Below are positions 1 to 34,444 of a stretch of 64,000 bases of DNA, piece after piece. The notes below the pieces were generated by a model. It did not search any database. It was not told the origin of the DNA and saw only the letters and a program-made list of their open reading frames with translations. Source of the DNA: an uncultured Chloroflexia bacterium (lineage in GTDB: Bacteria; Chloroflexota; Anaerolineae; Anaerolineales; UBA4823). Position 1 is the first letter of the stretch. Each line of letters starts with the position of its first letter. The position numbers and the translations under genes are program-made. The stretch lies in contig CAWIYB010000005.1 of the NCBI GenBank assembly GCA_963840255.1, positions 899,406 through 963,405 of the forward strand, in the 5' to 3' direction.

Positions 1-560
1 CATCTGATCTGTCGTATGATCGGACGAATATCCCAGCTCAGGTATTCGCTCCGGTGCCAGCCATCGAACCAGTTGTGAAACACCGACTCATATTTGGCGC
101 CATGGGCGTAACATAAACCTGTGCGAAAGTGCTCATCAGTCTCAAACGCGTGTTGAATGCCCAGTATACCCGGTTCCATTCTTGCTTCGACATAAATATG
201 TGCTGCCACAGTGATCAGGCAGGTTACCTCGTCGGGATACTGGGCAGCATAATACAGCGCGATGGTACCACCATCGCTGTGACCCACCAGGGCTGCTCTA
301 CGGACTCCGAGTTGTTCCAACAAGCTGTGGAGGTCATCGATGTCGGTCGCAAAAGTTGGCAGGTCCAAATCCGGCCTGCCATCAGAGCCCCCATATCCCC
401 AACGGTCATAAGCGATAACCTGGTACCCTGCGGCTACCAATGCTGGTATCTGCCCTCGCCATGCCTTGACCGAACCCAACCCGTGGTGCAGTAGCACCAC
501 ACATGGCTTATTTTCCTGACCGTTTCGCTCAACATTCAAGTTGTGACCGTTGATTAGCAT
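1..560 (-). CDS. alpha/beta-fold hydrolase (C-terminal end runs off the left edge of the window)
   Basis: Not in the ORF track because there is no stop in the window. Hand translation of the minus strand from ATG at 560-558 gives MLINGHNLNVERNGQENKPCVVLLHHGLGSVKAWRGQIPALVAAGYQVIAYDRWGYGGSDG...AALVGHSDGGTIALYYAAQYPDEV. The HG oxyanion motif and G-H-S-D-G nucleophile elbow (encoded ~267-284) are the alpha/beta-hydrolase signature. The + ORF 129..494 is its antisense shadow. Confidence 0.8.
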   Translation of the reverse strand, partial: MLINGHNLNVERNGQENKPCVVLLHHGLGSVKAWRGQIPALVAAGYQVIAYDRWGYGGSDGRPDLDLPTFATDIDDLHSLLEQLGVRRAALVGHSDGGTIALYYAAQYPDEVTCLITVAAHIYVEARMEPGILGIQHAFETDEHFRTGLCYAHGAKYESVFHNWFDGWHRSEYLSWDIRPIIRQIR

Positions 561-4916: not shown

Positions 4917-6101
4917 CTATCGTAGTCCAAGCTCCATCCTTGAAATGACCAGGCGTTGGATCTCGCTCGTTCCCTCGTATATTTCAGTGATCTTGGCATC
5001 TCTAAAGTAACGTTCTACAGGCAGCTCCTTGCTGTAACCCATTCCACCATGGATCTGCACGGCTGAATGAGCCACGAACATGGCCGTCTCGGAGGCGAAC
5101 AGCTTAGCCATGGCGGCTTCCCGAGTAAAACGCTCACCGGTGGTCTTGGCACGCTCCTTTGCCAGGGCTGCGTTATACACCAGCAAACGTGAGGCTTCTA
5201 TTCGTGTCTTCATGTCAGCAATCTTGAATGAGATGCCTTGAAACTCGCCAATCCTGGAGCCGAAGGCTTCCCGCTCCCTGGCGTAGGTTACACTGGCTTC
5301 ATAAGCCGCCTCGGCGATCCCCAATGCCTGGGCTGCAATCCCAATCCGCCCTGCGTCCAGCACTGCCATGGCGATCTTGAAACCGTCACCCTCTTCACCC
5401 AGGCGGTCTTCCATGGAGCAGCGGTAATCCTCAAATAGAATCTCGCTCGTTGCGGATGCGCGGATACCCAGCTTGGGTTCCTTCTTTCCCCGCACGAATC
5501 CAGGTTTGTTCGTATCGATCAGGAACGCACTGATCCCGCGGTGCTGCTTATCAGGGTCGGTCATGGTGAACATCACCACGTAATCTGCCACTGGTCCACT
5601 TGTCACCCACGACTTACGCCCATTGATGACATACCCCTCCCCATCTCGAACTGCCCGGCTGCGCATCGTCCCAGCATCCGATCCGGACATCGGCTCGGTG
5701 AGAGAATAGGCTCCAATTGCCTTGCCTGAAGCGACGGCGGTCACATACTTTTGTTTTTGGGCCTCGGTTCCAAACTTCAGTATGCCGTTGCAAAACAGGC
5801 TGTTATTCACCGACATGATGGTGCCGTGGGCAGCATCGACTTTGCATATTTCCTCGAGTGCCAGGACGTAAGCCAGGGTATCCATCCCTGCCCCGCCGTA
5901 GTCTTCGGGCACCTCGATCCCCATGAAACCCATTTCTCCCATCTTCTTGATCGTCTTGGAAGGAAATTCACCGGTCTCGTCGAACTCCGCCGCAACCGGC
6001 GCGATTTCTTTTTGCGCAAAATTACGCGCCGCCATACGGATGCTCTCGTGCTCTTCGGTAAACGGAAATAATAATCCACTGCCAGCCATCGTATCCTCCA
6101 C
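4917..6101 (-). CDS. acyl-CoA dehydrogenase (short/medium-chain type)
   Basis: 394 aa. Motifs YSLTEPMSGSDAG and QIHGGMGYSKELPVERYFRDAKITEIYEGTSEIQR (C-terminal catalytic Glu region) are typical ACAD signatures. The real start may be the second or third Met (MAGSG...). Confidence 0.9.
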   Translation of the reverse strand: MEDTMAGSGLLFPFTEEHESIRMAARNFAQKEIAPVAAEFDETGEFPSKTIKKMGEMGFMGIEVPEDYGGAGMDTLAYVLALEEICKVDAAHGTIMSVNNSLFCNGILKFGTEAQKQKYVTAVASGKAIGAYSLTEPMSGSDAGTMRSRAVRDGEGYVINGRKSWVTSGPVADYVVMFTMTDPDKQHRGISAFLIDTNKPGFVRGKKEPKLGIRASATSEILFEDYRCSMEDRLGEEGDGFKIAMAVLDAGRIGIAAQALGIAEAAYEASVTYAREREAFGSRIGEFQGISFKIADMKTRIEASRLLVYNAALAKERAKTTGERFTREAAMAKLFASETAMFVAHSAVQIHGGMGYSKELPVERYFRDAKITEIYEGTSEIQRLVISRMELGLR

Positions 6102-9583: not shown

Positions 9584-12500
9584 GTGTATATGCTTAAGAA
9601 ATTCGTTACCATTTTCGGCGGTGACCCTAACAAGAGAGCGCTCACCAAGTCTAACGATGTCGTCGACCAGATCAACAACCTGGAACCGGAGTTCGAGGCG
9701 TTGAGCTCTGAAGAGCTGCTTGCCAAGACAGTTGAATTCCAGTCACGCCTGGCCGATGGCGAGACCCTGGATGCCCTGCTACCCGAAGCCTTCGCTGCCG
9801 TGCGTGAAGCCAGTAAGCGCACCAACGGTCAACGCCATTATGACGTACAGCTGATCGGCGGCATATCCCTGCACCAGGGCAAGATCGCCGAGATGCGCAC
9901 CGGTGAAGGCAAGACCCTGGTGGCTACCCTGCCCCTGTACTTGAACGCACTCACCGGAAAGGGCACCCACCTGGTGACGGTGAACGACTACCTGGCACGG
10001 CGTGACGCCCGCTGGATGGCACCCATCTATAATGCGCTTGGGCTCAGTGTGGGCGTGCTGCAGATGGCTGCCCGCACAGAGAATGGAAAGAAAGCCTTCA
10101 TCGTTGACCTGGAGAAAACCTCCCCGCACGAAGACCAGCACCAGCTGCGCCTGGTGGACCGCCGCGAAGCCTACGCCGCCGACATCACCTACGGCATTAA
10201 CTCGGAGTTCGGCTTCGATTACCTGCGGGATAACATGACCATGAGCCTGGAAGAACGCGTCCAGCGCGGCCACTATTACGCCATCGTAGACGAGGTCGAC
10301 AACATCCTCATCGATGAAGCCCGCACCCCACTGATTATCTCAGGACCTGCCCAGGACGATGCCGAATGGTATATGCGCATGGTGCAGGTGGTACGCCAGC
10401 TGCGTGCCGAAGACTATGAGCTAAATGAGCGCGACCGAAATATCACCCTCACCGAGATCGGTGAGCTGCACGTCGAGGAGCTGCTGGGTGTCGCACTAAG
10501 CGACCCCGAACGCCCAGAGGACGTCACCCCCGAGCAGGCACGCTTGAGAGGCTTCCTCGAGCAAGCCTTGCGCGCCCAGTTCCTGTTCAAACGCAATAAA
10601 GACTACCTGGTCCAAACGGGTAAGGTTGTCATTGTCGACGAGTTCACCGGACGGTTGATGCCAGGGCGGCGCTGGTCGGATGGGCTTCACCAGGCGGTTG
10701 AAGCCAAGGAAGGTGTGCGCGTCCAGGCGGAGAACGTCACTTACGCCACCATCACCATCCAGAACTACTTCCGCATGTACGAGAAGCTGTGCGGGATGAC
10801 CGGTACTGCCCTCACCGAAGCTGAGGAGTTTGACAAGATCTACAAGCTGGATGTGATCGCCATCCCCACCAACCTGGAATACCAGGCTTTGCGCGAGGGG
10901 TCTGCTCTCTCCCTGCTCGAAGACAAGGATGAGCAGGGCTACAAGTTCCGCTATTATGCCTTGCAAAAAGATCCCCAGAAGCAGCCTGTATTCTTCCAGC
11001 GCAAGGATTTCCCGGATGTCATTTACCGTACCGAGGAGGTGAAGTTCCGCGCCATCACCAGTGAAATCCTGCGCTTCCATGCCATGGGTCGCCCGATGCT
11101 GGTAGGCACCACTTCGGTCGAGCTTTCCGACCACCTCTCCACCCGCATGCGGGCTGAGCCCCTGCGCAAGCTAGCCCAGGTAGCCATTCTGCGGCGGGCA
11201 TGGTTGGAGAAGAACAACCGCGAGGAGGATGGGCGTATTGTTGAAGAGCTGCAACCGCTCAATGCACCCCTCGACCAGCTGCAGGTGCCCGATATGCGCA
11301 AGATGGCGCGTGACCTGGGCATCTCCTTCAACCCCGAAGACCCCGAGAACATCACCCGTCTGCTGGATATCCTTGACCTGCCAGCTGAGGATGCCGAGCG
11401 GCTGAAGACCGACCTGGAATCGGGCATCCCCCACCAGGTGCTGAATGCCCGTAAGCACACCGAAGAATCCCAGATCATTGCCGATGCAGGTGCTTTTGGA
11501 GCAGTTACCATTGCTACCAACATGGCCGGACGCGGCGTCGACATCAAGCTTGGAGGCGAGCTGCCTGAAGGCGTAATCGACTCGGTCAACCGCATCCTGC
11601 GACGCGCCGGGTACGCCGACCCATATGACATGCGCCATGAAGAACGGCGCCAGGCACTCGAGGCACTCACCCCCGAGCAAACCGGCATCTATGAAGCCGA
11701 TATCGCCAGCTTCCTGAGCTACATGCAGCATATGCAGCGTGTTAAAGAGCTGGGCGGTTTGCATGTGATCGGCTCGGAGCGCCATGAAGCCCGCCGTATC
11801 GATAACCAGCTGCGCGGCCGTGCTGCCCGCCAGGGCGATCCCGGCTCGTCACGCTTCTACCTCTCCCTGGAAGACGAGCTGATGCGCCGCTTCGGTGGAG
11901 GGCAGGTCGAGTCGATCATGCAGCGCATGAAGATTGACGATGCCGTGCCCATGGAAGTGGGGCTGGTCAGTCGCCTGGTTGAGCAGTCTCAGACGCGGGT
12001 GGAAGGCGCCAACTTTGACGTCCGCAAGCACCTGCTCGAATACGACGACGTGCTCAACACCCAGCGCCAGCGCATCTATGGTCAGCGCGACTTAATCTTC
12101 ACCAAGGCTGACCTCTCGGAGGACGTGACCGAGCTATTGGGCACTGAAGTCAACCGCCGGGTACCTGAATCGCTGGCAGATGACGAAGGTCCATGGAAGC
12201 TGCTCGCCTGGCTGGACCAGGTGCAGCCACCGCTTGACCTGGGTGGGATACTCTTCCCGTCCTACTCGCTCAAGCTGCTGGTGGACCATCTTGCCAGCCA
12301 ACAGAAGGGCTACAACTCAATGGAGGACCTGCGCGATGCCCTGCTTGGGTTGGCGAACGAAGCGCTTAAAGCCGAGGAAGAACACTTATTACGCACCATC
12401 GACAACCTGCTGGAAACGAGCCGTGAGCGCCTGGAGAGCCAGGCGAAGGAACGCCTGGAAGCACTCGACACATTCTACGAAGGGCTGAGGATGGGCGAGG

Positions 12501-13742
12501 CGGACGATGCTGCCCCGCGCACCTCGCGAGACCTGCTGGATGAGCTGGTGGGCATGGTGCATGTTAACATCCGCCTGACCCCGGAGGAACTGCGCCTGCT
12601 GCGGGATGACCCCGACAAGGTACGCAAGACCATCCGCACCCAGGTGGAGAACGCGGTCGCCGGGCAGTCGGTGATGCGCCTGGTGGGTGCAATTGAGCGG
12701 CGCCTGGAAGACACCCTCGACCTCGAGGTTACCCAGCTGGACAGCTCGGATTGGGAAGCGATGGCAGACCAGGTCTACCATTCCACCCAGCTTGTGCTGA
12801 CCAAGAGGCGTGAGCGCCTGTTGGGCAACGGCGCCGGACCAGGATCCGGCCAGCTGGCACATGACCTGGAAAGTGCGCTCACGAAGATCACCGGACCCGT
12901 CACCACCAACCACATGCTGGGCTTGCTGTTGATGATGCCCCAGGGTACCAAGGCTTCCTTCGACAAGAAGACCCACCGGCGGGTCTTGCAGCGTACTACG
13001 CGCTTGAGCTACATCTACCTGGCAGCCCGCCTGCTGGAGGGGCGCCCCCCGGAGGATATTACTGAAGAGGTGCTGAAGCATCTGCAGAGCGCACAGGAGA
13101 CCATCCGCCGGGCCTGGGGAGCGAGTGAATTCTCGCGCCTGGCGAATGCCACGCTGCCAGAACTCGATCCCACACTGCGCGACACACTTTGCAGCCTGCT
13201 GGGTGAAGAGACCTGTGCCAGCCTGGAGACCCAACCCCTGCAAAGCCTGGACCGTGAGCAGATCATCAAGATCATGGACGAGCTGGGCCGTCGCGCCCTC
13301 ACCCAGGTCTACCGCCAGCTGCTGCTGGGGGTGATCACCGAGCTGTGGGTGGACTATCTGACCCAGATGGAAGCGCTTGCGCGTCTCCATCGGACTGGAA
13401 GCATATGGTCAGCGTGACCCGCTGGTGCAGTATAAGAGCAAGGCGTTCGAGCTGTTCCAGAATCTGCTCAAGGATATGCGTTCGGGAGTGATCGCGCGCA
13501 TGTTCACCTACCGCCCCCGCCTGATGAGCAGCGTACAGAGCGAGATGCACCGACCCACCACGGTGGAAGAATTCGAGGCGGAGACGGATGCCGTCACAGC
13601 GAGCGGTGATGGGGAAGAAGCCGAGGAGCAGCCGGCAGATGGGGCTGACCTTGAAGCTGAGGCCGAAGAAGAACCGGTGGGTGTGCAGGACAACCAACCC
13701 CAGCTCAGCAAGTCGCAGAAGAGGCGCAGGCATAGGAGGTAG
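9584..13742 (+). CDS. secA: preprotein translocase ATPase SecA, unusually long (~1385 aa) and interrupted by a 1-nt frameshift near 13379
   Basis: Motor motifs MRTGEGKTLVATLP, VDEVDNILIDEARTPLIISG, GMTGTALTEAEEF, TNMAGRGVDIKLGG and GGLHVIGSERHEARRIDNQLRGRAARQGDPGSSRFYLSLEDELMRRFG. ORF 9584..13417 ends in out-of-frame residues after ...WVDYLTQMEAL. The conserved continuation [26 protein letters not shown] is in the next frame (ORF 13377..13742). Confidence 0.9.
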
Positions 13743-14190
13743 GAATGTCAGCGACCAACATAAAGATTAACACGAAGGACACAAAGTACACAAAGGAAAC
13801 GCATAATAAATATTAATCCATTACAGGATTAGGCAATAAGGGTGGAATGTTTAGGTACTTTAGATCAGGCGGGATTGAAACCCAGTTATCGCTCACAGAT
13901 AACGTTGGCGACTTTGTCATAAAAAAAACAGAAAACGAAACGGAACGAAGATTGCAGCAAAAGCGGCTGCGATTTGGTATACTCCTAACATACAGGTGTG
14001 TACGTTGGGATGAATTGAATTGATTAAAAAAAATAAATGAATTCAAATAAGCTCCTGGATGAATATCCAAAATAACAGCGGGGGAAATAATGGTTGAAGA
14101 TCTCGTAAGCATGACCTATTGCATATCAGTTATGCGTTGGGTTTCGGCAAAAATACTGCCAAATCCCCATCTACTCCTGGCTGAGGATTA

Positions 14191-14263
14191 ACATTTGCAA
14201 CAGCGCAGGGGAGGGATTTTTAATGTTGCATTCGGGATTCCTCCCCTGCGCTTCTACAAATGT
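14191..14263. other. long imperfect hairpin (two-tier stem)
   Basis: ACATTTG (14191-97) pairs with CAAATGT (14257-63). AGCGCAGGGGAGG (14202-14) pairs with CCTCCCCTGCGCT (14240-52). The loop is 25 nt. It lies ~450 nt downstream of the secA stop in a gene-free gap. Confidence 0.5.
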
Positions 14264-14276
14264 CATTCCTCATTTG

Positions 14277-14371
14277 GTGAGTAATAACACTTATACCGGT
14301 AAAGATCAACCGGTATACGGATGTCATTATCTAAAATGAAATAAAGATGACATCCTAATGTATCTACTCAC
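14277..14371. repeat. 95-bp inverted-terminus element A (candidate small structured RNA or MITE)
   Basis: Termini GTGAGTA (14277-83) and TACTCAC (14365-71) enclose two hairpins: TACCGGT-aaagatca-ACCGGTA (14294-14315) and GGATGTCAT...ATGACATCC (14319-14355). Confidence 0.55.
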
Positions 14372-14410
14372 TATAACTGGCATTATGTAACCTATCGTGA
14401 ATAAGAAAGA

Positions 14411-14472
14411 GCGGATTGCTTCGTCGAGCTTCGGTATCTAGTAAAAAGCATTGGATTCTGTGAACGCCCTCC
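14411..14472. repeat. conserved ~62-nt core, copy 1
   Basis: gcggattgcttcgtcgagcttcggtatctagtaaaaagcattggattctgtgaacgccctcc aligns with 14811-14873 (gattgcttcNtcgNgcttc ... aagcattggattctgNgaacgccctc). Confidence 0.55.
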
Positions 14473-14564
14473 TTCTCCGAAAACCAACGGGGATACCGCA
14501 ACGACAATTAAAAGGTTCGCCGCGGTGGATTTATAATGATTCTTGGCGAATAATGGTCGAGGGG

Positions 14565-14772
14565 GTGAGTAATTACCACTCTTACCGGTAAAGACCGACC
14601 GGTACACGACTGCCTTTTACCGATATAACCCAATCGGTACAGGAAACTACTGTTTGATATGGGAAACCACCATATCAACTTTTGTAGGCAGTCCTACCGG
14701 TAAAGACCAACCGGTATACGAATGCTTTCATCTTAATTAACCATAGGAAAGTATTCTAATGTAATTACTCAC
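14565..14772. repeat. 208-bp inverted-terminus element B (candidate structured RNA or MITE)
   Basis: Perfect 12-bp termini GTGAGTAATTAC (14565-76) and GTAATTACTCAC (14761-72). Internal hairpins are TACCGGT/ACCGGTA (14583-14604), TACCGAT/ATCGGTA (14618-39), TTGATATGG/CCATATCAA (14654-78), TACCGGT/ACCGGTA (14695-14716) and GAATGCTTTC/GAAAGTATTC (14720-56). The helix ACTGCC/GGCAGT (14609-14 / 14687-92) encloses the middle two. Confidence 0.6.
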
Positions 14773-14810
14773 AGAAATCGAGAAAAAAACCGATTGATCT
14801 ATATTGTAAA

Positions 14811-14873
14811 AGGCAGATTGCTTCTTCGGGCTTCAAAGTGTGGTAATAAGCATTGGATTCTGAGAACGCCCTC
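14811..14873. repeat. conserved ~62-nt core, copy 2
   Basis: aggcagattgcttcttcgggcttcaaagtgtggtaataagcattggattctgagaacgccctca is the second copy of the core at 14411-14472. A solo left terminus GTGAGTAATTAC follows at 14942-53. Confidence 0.55.
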
Positions 14874-15072
14874 ATCGCAATGACAGTTAATGGGAAATTA
14901 TTATTCGAATTTGCTTACATTTTTACCTACGAGTGCGAACAGTGAGTAATTACATTCTAATTATAGCACAAATGTTCTAATCCACAAGGGGTTTAAGAAG
15001 ATTTAAGGGAAGCGTAGGGTAGCGGTTGGCGGAACAGCAGGGGCGACTAGATATAAAACCACCACCAACCCT

Positions 15073-15567
15073 TCAACTGTTCCCACTGGCTTTCAACGCA
15101 CGCTCGATGTCGCGAACCCGGTGGAAGGTAGAATGACCGACGAGGTCATATGGCCATTCCTTATTACGCTCCTTGCTGGTGAACCATTCATCGGTGGCTG
15201 CTCTCAGCGCAGCGAGCACGTCCTGCTGGACCTGCCTGTGCCAGGCGAGCACATCCTGGGGAGAACGATTGTGCCAGCGCAAGTAGATGAGATGGTTGGC
15301 GTCATTCGTCTCCAGCCCACGTTCCTCGGGAAGTCGCTTTTGCCGCCGGGCGGAGCGGGCCAGGTCCGCTTTCCAATGGGTGATATGGGCGACAGCATCT
15401 TTCACCGTCCATGGGTCTTTTGTCTCTGGTCGGATCAACAGCTGCTCCCAATCTTCAGCGCTTAAACCCACCAGCAACTGATCCAGGAGCTTGAACTCAC
15501 TGATGGCACGCTCGATTACTTCGTCACGGGTGTGATGCATGGTTTGTAAGACCTCCTGCCAGGTCAA
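15073..15567 (-). CDS. DinB/ClbS-like four-helix-bundle protein (function uncertain)
   Basis: 164 aa. The pattern ...LSAEDWEQLL...PWTVKDAVAHITHWKADL... resembles the DinB-superfamily / ClbS(DUF1706)-type His-containing helix. Coding status is well supported by length and composition; the family call comes from memory only. Confidence 0.5.
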   Translation of the reverse strand: MTWQEVLQTMHHTRDEVIERAISEFKLLDQLLVGLSAEDWEQLLIRPETKDPWTVKDAVAHITHWKADLARSARRQKRLPEERGLETNDANHLIYLRWHNRSPQDVLAWHRQVQQDVLAALRAATDEWFTSKERNKEWPYDLVGHSTFHRVRDIERALKASGNS

Positions 15568-19976: not shown

Positions 19977-20277
19977 ATCGAGACCGGGATCACCGATTCC
20001 GGCTACAAAACAAATCGAGACCGGGATCACCGATCCCAGCTACAAAACAAGTGGACCGGGATCAACCCCCTCCAAGTGCAAAGGGGGTAGGCCGATCCCA
20101 GCAATAAAACAAATCGTGACCAGGATCAGCGATCCCGGCTACAAAACGAACAGAGACCGGGATCAACCCCCTTCAAGTGCAAAGGGGGCAGGCCCCCTCC
20201 AAGTGCAGTGGGGGGCAGGCCGATACCGGCAATAAAACATATCGAGACCGGGATCACCGATCCCGGCTACAAAACAA
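19977..20277. repeat. tandem array of six ~37-bp hairpin units, two carrying a nested G/C palindrome insertion
   Basis: The unit is atcgagaCCGGGATCaccGATCCCGGctacaaaacaa. Units 3 and 5 have ccccctccaagtgcaaagggggtaggc (20066-92) or a doubled copy (20167-20220) inserted exactly in the hairpin loop. The array is intergenic between two minus-strand genes. Confidence 0.85.
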
Positions 20278-20298
20278 ATGGGATGTTATGGATCTAGT

Positions 20299-34220: not shown

Positions 34221-34444
34221 TAATCCCATTTTCCCCAGCTTAAATTGGTTGTAATACCTCACCGATTGATAATTAACCTCAACGCGTTCAAAAGGGGATC
34301 CCCCTACCTCCTCCCCCAAAAACATGTTATTAGGGGAGGAGAAATGCGGTAATGATTGTGATTTGGTCGAAACAAGTATCGCTAGCTACTCTATAAGTCC
34401 TCGACCATTTTCACATAGGTGAAAGAAAAAAAACAATCGATCCA

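Follow-up and report, generated by a model that had tools for sequence, protein, structure and literature searches.

Outward-facing ends of IS66-type MITEs frame a hairpin array resembling REP clusters in the secA-dinB spacer of an uncultured Anaerolineae bacterium

BOX elements of Streptococcus pneumoniae and Correia elements of Neisseria are modular repeats in which variable hairpin modules lie between conserved ends, and both fold stably and show promoter activity. REP clusters are known landing sites of insertion sequences, e.g., IS1397. REP, BIME and REPIN systems are mobilised by RAYT transposases, i.e., Y1 enzymes of the IS200-like type (PMC3116915, PMC3733652), and in the REPs so mobilised one end of the palindrome bears a tag, GTAG (or CGTC), that stays unpaired (PMC3733652). 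Within the IS66 family, ISDge4 of Deinococcus geothermalis (ISBst12 group) has the TIRs GTAACTGCTCAGCA and GTGACTACTCAGCA, a single transposase of 449 aa and an 8-bp direct repeat (PMC12898284). Our literature search turned up no account of the IS66-type MITEs or of the REP-like repeats of Anaerolineae that we report here, and in the papers searched we saw no IS66 site preference like the one seen in these genomes.

The window, i.e., the whole 64-kb stretch of DNA that was analysed (G+C ~52%), contains a non-coding gap of 1.33 kb between two convergent genes, secA (9584-13742, plus strand, with Pfam SecA domains) and a DinB_2-family gene (15073-15567, minus strand), and this gap houses two hairpin segments, A and B. 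An apparent frame change is seen in secA near 13400, where the overlapping ORFs 9584-13417 and 13377-13742 both have SecA_SW matches, and the split in two frames (13377-13417), close to the 3' end of the gene, is due to a frameshift or to an error of sequencing. As coding sequence the array was rejected, since it offers just short ORFs with stops, and a 99-aa ORF at 13813-14112 is without a Pfam match. A BLAST comparison of the intergenic region with related Anaerolineae loci (given L numbers below) revealed that essentially the whole of 14272-15030 is made of modules that recur in them. One of these loci, L028 from MAG MFD02979.bin.1.145, shares synteny with the window, being 90.8% identical over 6.2 kb that cover secA and sequence upstream of it and 87% identical over dinB, and its spacer (L028 1-1700, compared with window 13742-15050) contains a copy of the same dispersed repeat, which we call H, along with other MITEs, in the opposite orientation and with different arrays. 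The reversal and the differing arrays indicate that the spacer was rebuilt after the two species split, and this counts against a conserved local function. The spacer is a repeat hot spot.

The first-pass annotation of this DNA had singled out B (14565-14772) as a 208-bp element with perfect 12-bp inverted termini and internal hairpins, and A as its 95-bp relative. As description this holds well. Between the termini, GTGAGTAATTAC at 14565-14576 and GTAATTACTCAC at 14761-14772, complementarity is perfect, and the repeated hairpin motif TACCGRT-N6-12-AYCGGTA is found four times in the 64 kb, every time in the A/B cluster (14294, 14583, 14618 and 14695), with a chance expectation of zero (none in 100 shuffles); the second of the three copies in B is the variant stem TACCGAT/ATCGGTA at 14618-14639. 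The segments follow one plan, in which a 22-nt hairpin (hp1, TACCGGT-AAAGAYCR-ACCGGTA) is followed by TAC/CAC and then by a second hairpin (hp2) of variable sequence, with a single such unit in A and two in B. The interior of A (14289-14359, plus strand, 88-89% identical to units in L004 and L035) comprises hp1 at 14294-14315 (TACCGGT-AAAGATCA-ACCGGTA) and hp2 at 14319-14355, the arms of which are GGATGTCAT (14319-14327) and ATGACATCC (14347-14355). The interior of B (14577-14760, plus strand) comprises two units in tandem. The first has its hp1 at 14583-14604 and an hp2 whose enclosing stem GACTGCCT/AGGCAGTC (14608-14615 / 14686-14693) holds three small hairpins nested inside it, i.e., the variant stem just mentioned, the mini-hairpin CAG-GAAACTA-CTG (14640-14652) and a hairpin at 14654-14678. 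The second has hp1 at 14695-14716 and hp2 at 14720-14756, with the arms GAATGCTTTC (14720-14729) and GAAAGTATTC (14747-14756) and one G:T pair, so that the hairpin beside the right terminus does sit at the same position in A and B with differing sequences. Folding of both strands, a check that had been proposed, gave -78.5 kcal/mol (z = -9.1) for the plus and -75.4 kcal/mol (z = -6.2) for the minus strand of B, and z-scores of -6.5 and -7.4 against shuffles for the two strands of A. Neither hp1 nor hp2 is followed by the T run of an intrinsic terminator, and a loose terminator scan returned three sites against 1.8 expected, the only ones within the array being 14654-14678 (plus) and 14317-14292 (minus).

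Three further features had been overlooked: the 12-mer recurs a third time (14942-14953), both A and B are followed by a 66-nt direct repeat (14406-14471 / 14808-14873), and an 8-bp direct repeat, ATTCTAAT, stands at 14753-14760 and 14954-14961. They belong to what we identify as three MITEs, X0, X1 and X2, derived from an IS66-family (ISBst12-type) insertion sequence and inserted in the H copy of the window (all on the plus strand). X0 (14148-14288) is palindromic, with an inverted repeat at 14182-14217 / 14237-14272; its right terminus GTGAGTAATAAC (14277-14288) is clear, its left one is degenerate (about 14148 or 14169), and its interior (..tccctcccctgcg..ctac..) matches a MITE at L011 411-563 that has the duplication GTTCTAAT. 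X1 (14360-14576, 217 bp) has the termini GTATCTACTCAC and GTGAGTAATTAC and holds the first copy of the 66-nt repeat; the sequences flanking it do not match (1/8) as a target duplication would. X2 (14761-14953, 193 bp) lies between GTAATTACTCAC and GTGAGTAATTAC and is flanked by the perfect 8-bp duplication ATTCTAAT just given, and its empty site (hp2-CTAAT joined to TATAGCAC) is uninterrupted in many loci. By alignment, X1 and X2 are homologous from end to end with seven MITE copies from five other MAG loci, and every copy of the 12-mer has the hairpin array on one side and recurrent interiors, including the 66-nt repeat, on the other. Elsewhere in the window, a degenerate MITE end of another subfamily (GTAATACCTCACcgattgataattaacctc..) was seen at 34251-34400, after the stop of the upstream gene, and this subfamily is intact in L010, L026 and L052. 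At 20100-20280, two direct repeats of ~55 nt (gcaataaaaca.atcg.gacc.ggatca.cgatcccggctacaaaac) surround short G/C-rich repeats, and a 37-nt piece of them has 97% identity to L055 1715-1751.

Which side of the 12-mers is the mobile one can be read from target duplications and polarity. In 38 Chloroflexi loci and the window, examined in both polarities, a perfect 8/8 repeat flanks nine of the 30 pairs arranged as GTAATTACTCAC...GTGAGTAATTAC, and three more come close, one with 7/8 and two with 6/8; a single 8/8 match has a chance probability of 1.5e-5. None of the 14 pairs in the polarity of A and B is flanked by a duplication (maximum 5/8), and the flanks of B itself, TCGAGGGG and AGAAATCG, agree at 2/8. 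Individual insertions can be followed as well: in L057 a filled site (..CCACAAGA, a 193-bp MITE, then CCACAAGAgg..) splits ttctaatCCACAAGAgg, which is intact in many other loci, and L004 carries an extra MITE with the duplication GTCCTAAT when set beside its 97%-identical paralogue L035. No IS66 transposase gene is present within the 64-kb window; an autonomous copy of the element was found in a related MAG (L052 4984-6423), 1,440 bp long, with identical termini of 12-13 bp, the duplication ATCAGTGT and a single ORF of 461 aa that matches PF03050 (DDE_Tnp_IS66) with E = 1.1e-35. The X-type MITEs thus resemble ISDge4 in their GTAA-starting termini (GTAACTGCTCAGCA there, GTAATTACTCACC here), in the 8-bp duplication and in having a full-length partner with one DDE_Tnp_IS66 ORF. 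As MITEs of the IS66/ISBst12 type those of Anaerolineae are non-coding, 150-350 bp long and have several different interiors, and the elements differ from their ISBst12 kin in a strong site preference and in that a matching duplication is missing in two thirds of the copies.

Given that the outer tip of the autonomous element and of ISDge4 is 5'-GTAA, both 12-mers beside B point away from it, and an IS66-type transposase would therefore be unable to mobilise B. We consider it very likely that B is an array segment (14577-14760) together with the adjoining tips of X1 (its right one) and X2 (its left one), with A lying between X0 and X1 and with tips that face outward. That B (and likewise the 95-bp A) is a discrete TIR-bounded element, either a MITE or a self-contained RNA closed by a terminal helix, has in its favour the perfect complementarity of the 12-bp ends, which predicted folds use as a closing stem, and the fact that A and B have these termini in common. 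It is nevertheless highly improbable: the duplications (0/14 in this polarity, 9/30 in the opposite one) and the orientation of the GTAA tips are both wrong for it, the conserved mobile family consists of the outside segments X1 and X2, an array in another genome (L141) extends past the position of B's left "terminus", and most arrays finish in a promoter module and not in a second terminus. The single TIR-bounded unit of the first-pass annotation consequently dissolves into the outward tips of two neighbours. The MITE alternative, for which a search for target duplications had been suggested, was right about the kind of element, but it holds for the neighbours of B and not for B itself.

A and B could also stem from a recent tandem duplication in place, in which a unit of ~400 bp (the hairpins with the 66-nt repeat after them) was copied and palindromes arose by chance, and the direct repeats D3 (78 nt, 73%) and D4 (66 nt, 80%), spaced 401 and 402 bp apart, are what such an event would leave. 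However, A resembles the copies in L004 and L035 (88-89%) more than it does B (73%), X1 in its right part matches L035 at 84% over 120 nt as against 80% for X2 over 66 nt, X2 has a perfect target duplication of its own, and the hairpin pattern has a chance expectation of zero. We give this explanation next to no credence.

The array itself is part of a dispersed Anaerolineae repeat. H, as defined here, consists of a promoter module, a palindrome array and a T-rich end. A scan of species-representative genomes yielded ~40 matches to the hp1 pattern in Anaerolineae/Chloroflexia MAGs, several per genome, and 44 hp1 hairpins were counted in 342 kb (Anaerolineae loci and the window), several per array; pattern matches in Streptomyces, Bacteroidota and others were set aside as they lie in unrelated contexts, e.g., in a conserved operator-like upstream sequence. 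Arrays in the MAGs contain tandem and nested hairpins with diverse stems (TACCGGT, TACCGAT, TACAGAT, TACCGAG, CATCGGT and mini-stems of 3-4 bp), and their loops keep an AAGAnCA motif despite the differing stems. The sigma-70 promoter module (~65 bp) was found in 36 copies in the loci and the window, always on the hp2 side of the array and outside long ORFs save for three crude ORF calls; conservation extends to bases outside the search pattern, namely TTG in the -35 and the last AT of the -10, and the spacer varies. In the window it lies on the minus strand at 14957-15021, with a -35 TTGTGG (14987-14982), a 16-nt spacer, an extended -10 TGCTATAAT (14968-14960) and the outer end GCGTAGGGTA (15012-15021). 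Past the array, H copies usually continue with 100-250 nt of unique sequence and then a T-rich end, and the window has such a terminator-like distal end on the minus strand at 13905-13975 (a hairpin at 13970-13954 followed by a T-rich tail). The secA-dinB spacer holds one H copy on the minus strand, running from the module through the array to the T-rich end near 13950. The array of L141, which lies upstream of a RAYT-like gene, is collinear with the left two thirds of B, down to the TACCGAT hairpin nested there and the mini-hairpin CAG..CTG, and has a native spacer, GGAGAGCACTTC, where the right end of X1 sits in the window, after which the array runs on leftward. B is thus no private oddity.

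Arrays built in this way invite comparison with other repeat classes. A CRISPR-like array was considered and rejected, as the "spacers" (hp2) are themselves palindromes and no CRISPR repeat match rose above noise. The likeness to BOX and Correia elements lies in the modular build with variable internal hairpin modules, in stable folding and in the presence of a promoter; unlike there, neither TIRs nor a TA duplication belong to the Anaerolineae arrays themselves, the conserved ends come from another transposon, and there is no sequence similarity.

The same arrays are the preferred landing site of the IS66-type element. In 12 of the 36 promoter modules, the end of an IS or MITE sits at one and the same phosphodiester beside the -10 box, exactly 8 nt past GCTATA; the 12 interiors all differ and include the full IS and the X2 of the window. 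At 20 of the 44 hp1 hairpins a MITE right end lies 5-7 nt before the hairpin (18 different interiors), and a matching duplication was found at none of these. The hp1-adjacent ends go beyond simple insertion, and candidate explanations are adjacent deletion to a pseudo-end, MITE-MITE recombination, or insertion of hairpin units beside the terminal TTAC in the style of IS608; the 20 duplication-less junctions hint at an unusual, possibly pseudo-end-directed, transposition pathway. In five cases (L041 4333-4364, 4482-4513, 4713-4744 and 5027-5058; L061 897-928) a TIR, 8 bp and another TIR follow one another. Two MITE ends that face each other across exactly 8 bp, i.e., back-to-back insertions sharing one spacer, suggest that the ends attract insertions.

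The observation that pairing is kept through sequence change, made on A and B, extends to the wider family. Across 27 distinct pairs of hp2 arms, an arm forms 7.44 of 9 Watson-Crick pairs with its own partner and 4.88 of 9 with a foreign one, and most positions of the stems show two to four pair types; pairing is so much better with the own partner that the compensatory changes noted earlier hold and generalise. Downstream of the promoter, 132 non-identical stems (some of them internal to MITEs) contain isolated mismatches that are G:T in 20 cases and A:C in 22 on the transcribed-sense strand, and with the two nearly equal there is no sign of one RNA strand as the selected molecule. The stem pattern is what DNA palindromes give; for an RNA reading the wobble strand test is uninformative. 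A search against Rfam 15 returned no match in the window at gathering score, and at permissive thresholds (13400-15200) only chance-level miRNA-like matches to the palindrome of X0. The earlier proposal of a functional RNA or a DNA cruciform therefore fares unevenly: its RNA half gains nothing from Rfam or from the mismatch counts (20 against 22), and its DNA half, a hairpin in DNA, fits.

A structured RNA would, in this context, be a minus-strand transcript started by the module, B included, that exposes UGnUCUU loops (AAGAnCA on the opposite strand) and acts as a protein sponge, a stabilising RNA or a leader RNA. In its favour, 36 copies of the promoter module retain TTG in the -35 and TGnTATAAT while the spacer varies, the stems covary around a constant loop motif, the unit is closed by T-rich, terminator-like ends, and crude ORF calls place the downstream ORF in the orientation of the promoter 17 times against 8. 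Phages provide a further point. The module, including its upstream part (ATGAGAAATCTTAAA..), recurs in five IMG/VR contigs (L063, L067, L068, L069 and L073; e.g., L067 264-455), where it stands ahead of a conserved structured leader of ~165 nt with the closing helix GAACCCCUGGCACGGG/CCCGUGCCAGGGGUUC and then of late genes; the leader is followed by a small ORF (..PRGAPKGNLNALKNGFY..), a 498-aa ORF and genes for a GH25 lysin and a capsid. The presence of the module in five phage contigs supports its being a genuine promoter and leaves room for the RNA reading. The phage leader belongs to no Rfam family at gathering or permissive thresholds, and the hp1 pattern is absent from the viral contigs. 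L056 (2697-3554) has, ~400 nt downstream of an H promoter and its array, an ORF (MLPSPKRPRGAPKGNLNALKHGFY..) that is of one type with the small phage ORF, which hints that some H copies may stand before phage-like genes.

Against an RNA function, in turn, the strand asymmetry of mismatches is absent and no Rfam family is matched; the first hairpin begins 2-3 nt past the -10, so that a normal start site would cut its stem; in one third of the copies an insertion of 150-1,440 bp separates promoter and array; and array content and length vary freely among copies, also between the window and the orthologous L028. We regard the structured RNA as unlikely on balance, while the conservation of promoter and AAGAnCA loop fits an RNA role and a REP-like role equally well.

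It is the REP-like role that the neighbourhood of H brings to the fore. In L057, a gene for a RAYT-like protein (5054-5662, 202 aa) lies ~150 nt behind the promoter module in divergent orientation. The protein matches NCBIfam NF047646 (REP_Tyr_transpos) at 5.4e-16 and 58.8 bits, below the curated cut-off of 80, and Pfam Y1_Tnp weakly, and JGI often gives the name RayT to its relatives in the databases. Among relatives whose DNA could be retrieved, the three closest (81%, 61% and 60% identity; L141 942-1556, L142 2501-3118 and L143 2041-2736) share the arrangement with L057, with an H array and module 150-330 nt upstream of the gene and on one side only. H is absent beside the further relatives in L144-146 (50-59% identity) and beside all 66 metagenome relatives (25-67% identity). 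In L028, H abuts a 48-aa fragment of a RAYT-like pseudogene (309-455, minus strand) with an HUH motif (MMPNHVHGIIII..) that ends in ..GGGTCGCCCCTATAAAAA, and at the corresponding position in the window there is a putative, weakly identified remnant (GGGGCGACTAG..., 15036-15050, plus strand) of the palindrome that RAYT-like genes contain. The association between H and the RAYT-like gene appears statistically striking; it is one-sided, and is not proof of mobilisation.

All RAYT-like genes of this clade, including those of L144-L146, also contain an in-frame, palindrome-ended insert of ~100 bp (GTAGGGGCGACCC..~70 nt..GGGTCGCCCCTAC). Its palindrome GTAGGGGCGACCC is GTAG-tagged and has extra copies flanking the gene in L142 and L143, and the repeat is rare elsewhere in the examined loci and absent from the window. 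The insert has the appearance of a GTAG-tagged REPIN that resides within the gene of its own transposase, and its palindrome could be the true cognate repeat of the RAYT-like genes.

How far the arrays themselves follow REPs and BIMEs can be set out point by point. In common they have extragenic palindromes of ~22-45 nt, multi-copy and clustered, with covarying stems, which agrees with the 20-40 bp, the imperfect pairing, the many copies and the extragenic position usual for REPs; the array of the window lies between convergent genes, and in four loci the array directly adjoins a RAYT-like gene, on one side of it only. In contrast to REPs and BIMEs, hp1 and hp2 have no GTAG or CGTC tag, their conserved linker being TACG (CGTA on the other strand), and the units are tandem in one orientation and nested, not alternating, with a conserved AAGAnCA loop. 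A fixed sigma-70 module, shared with phages, stands at one end of the array, and the RAYT-like gene has the array on a single side and carries a separate GTAG-tagged palindrome.

With these likenesses and differences in view, we tentatively suggest, at somewhat less than even confidence, that the array units are REP/BIME-like DNA palindromes maintained for hairpin form and not for sequence, as a substrate or binding site of a RAYT-like Y1 (HUH) transposase. Single-strand hairpins would be what this enzyme acts on or binds, and transcription driven by the module may expose the array as single-stranded DNA. We further postulate, with a good deal more reserve, that H could be an undescribed REP-like mobile cassette of Anaerolineae with an outward promoter shared with phages, free stems and a fixed AAGAnCA loop, spread by a RAYT-like Y1 transposase whose gene would keep a master copy at its 5' side, with transcription supplying the single-stranded DNA, and used also as a landing pad by the IS66-type element. 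For the spacer as a whole, an H copy with a REP-like array interrupted by MITEs is the account we favour, with moderate confidence.

The termini of B are, then, ordinary ends of IS66/ISBst12-type MITEs, and the hairpins between them are members of a family of dispersed arrays that bear a promoter, are linked to RAYT and resemble REP/BIME clusters without having their GTAG tag. For annotation the lesson is that two adjacent MITEs can mimic one TIR-bounded element, and that polarity and target duplications resolve the matter. For the uncultured Anaerolineae, the analysis brings to light an active-looking IS66 element of the ISBst12 type with a MITE family and an unusually strict insertion site, together with arrays in which strong stem covariation without strand bias is tied to a RAYT-like gene outside Proteobacteria. 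If biochemistry confirms that link, the REP/RAYT paradigm would be widened to untagged, promoter-bearing arrays.
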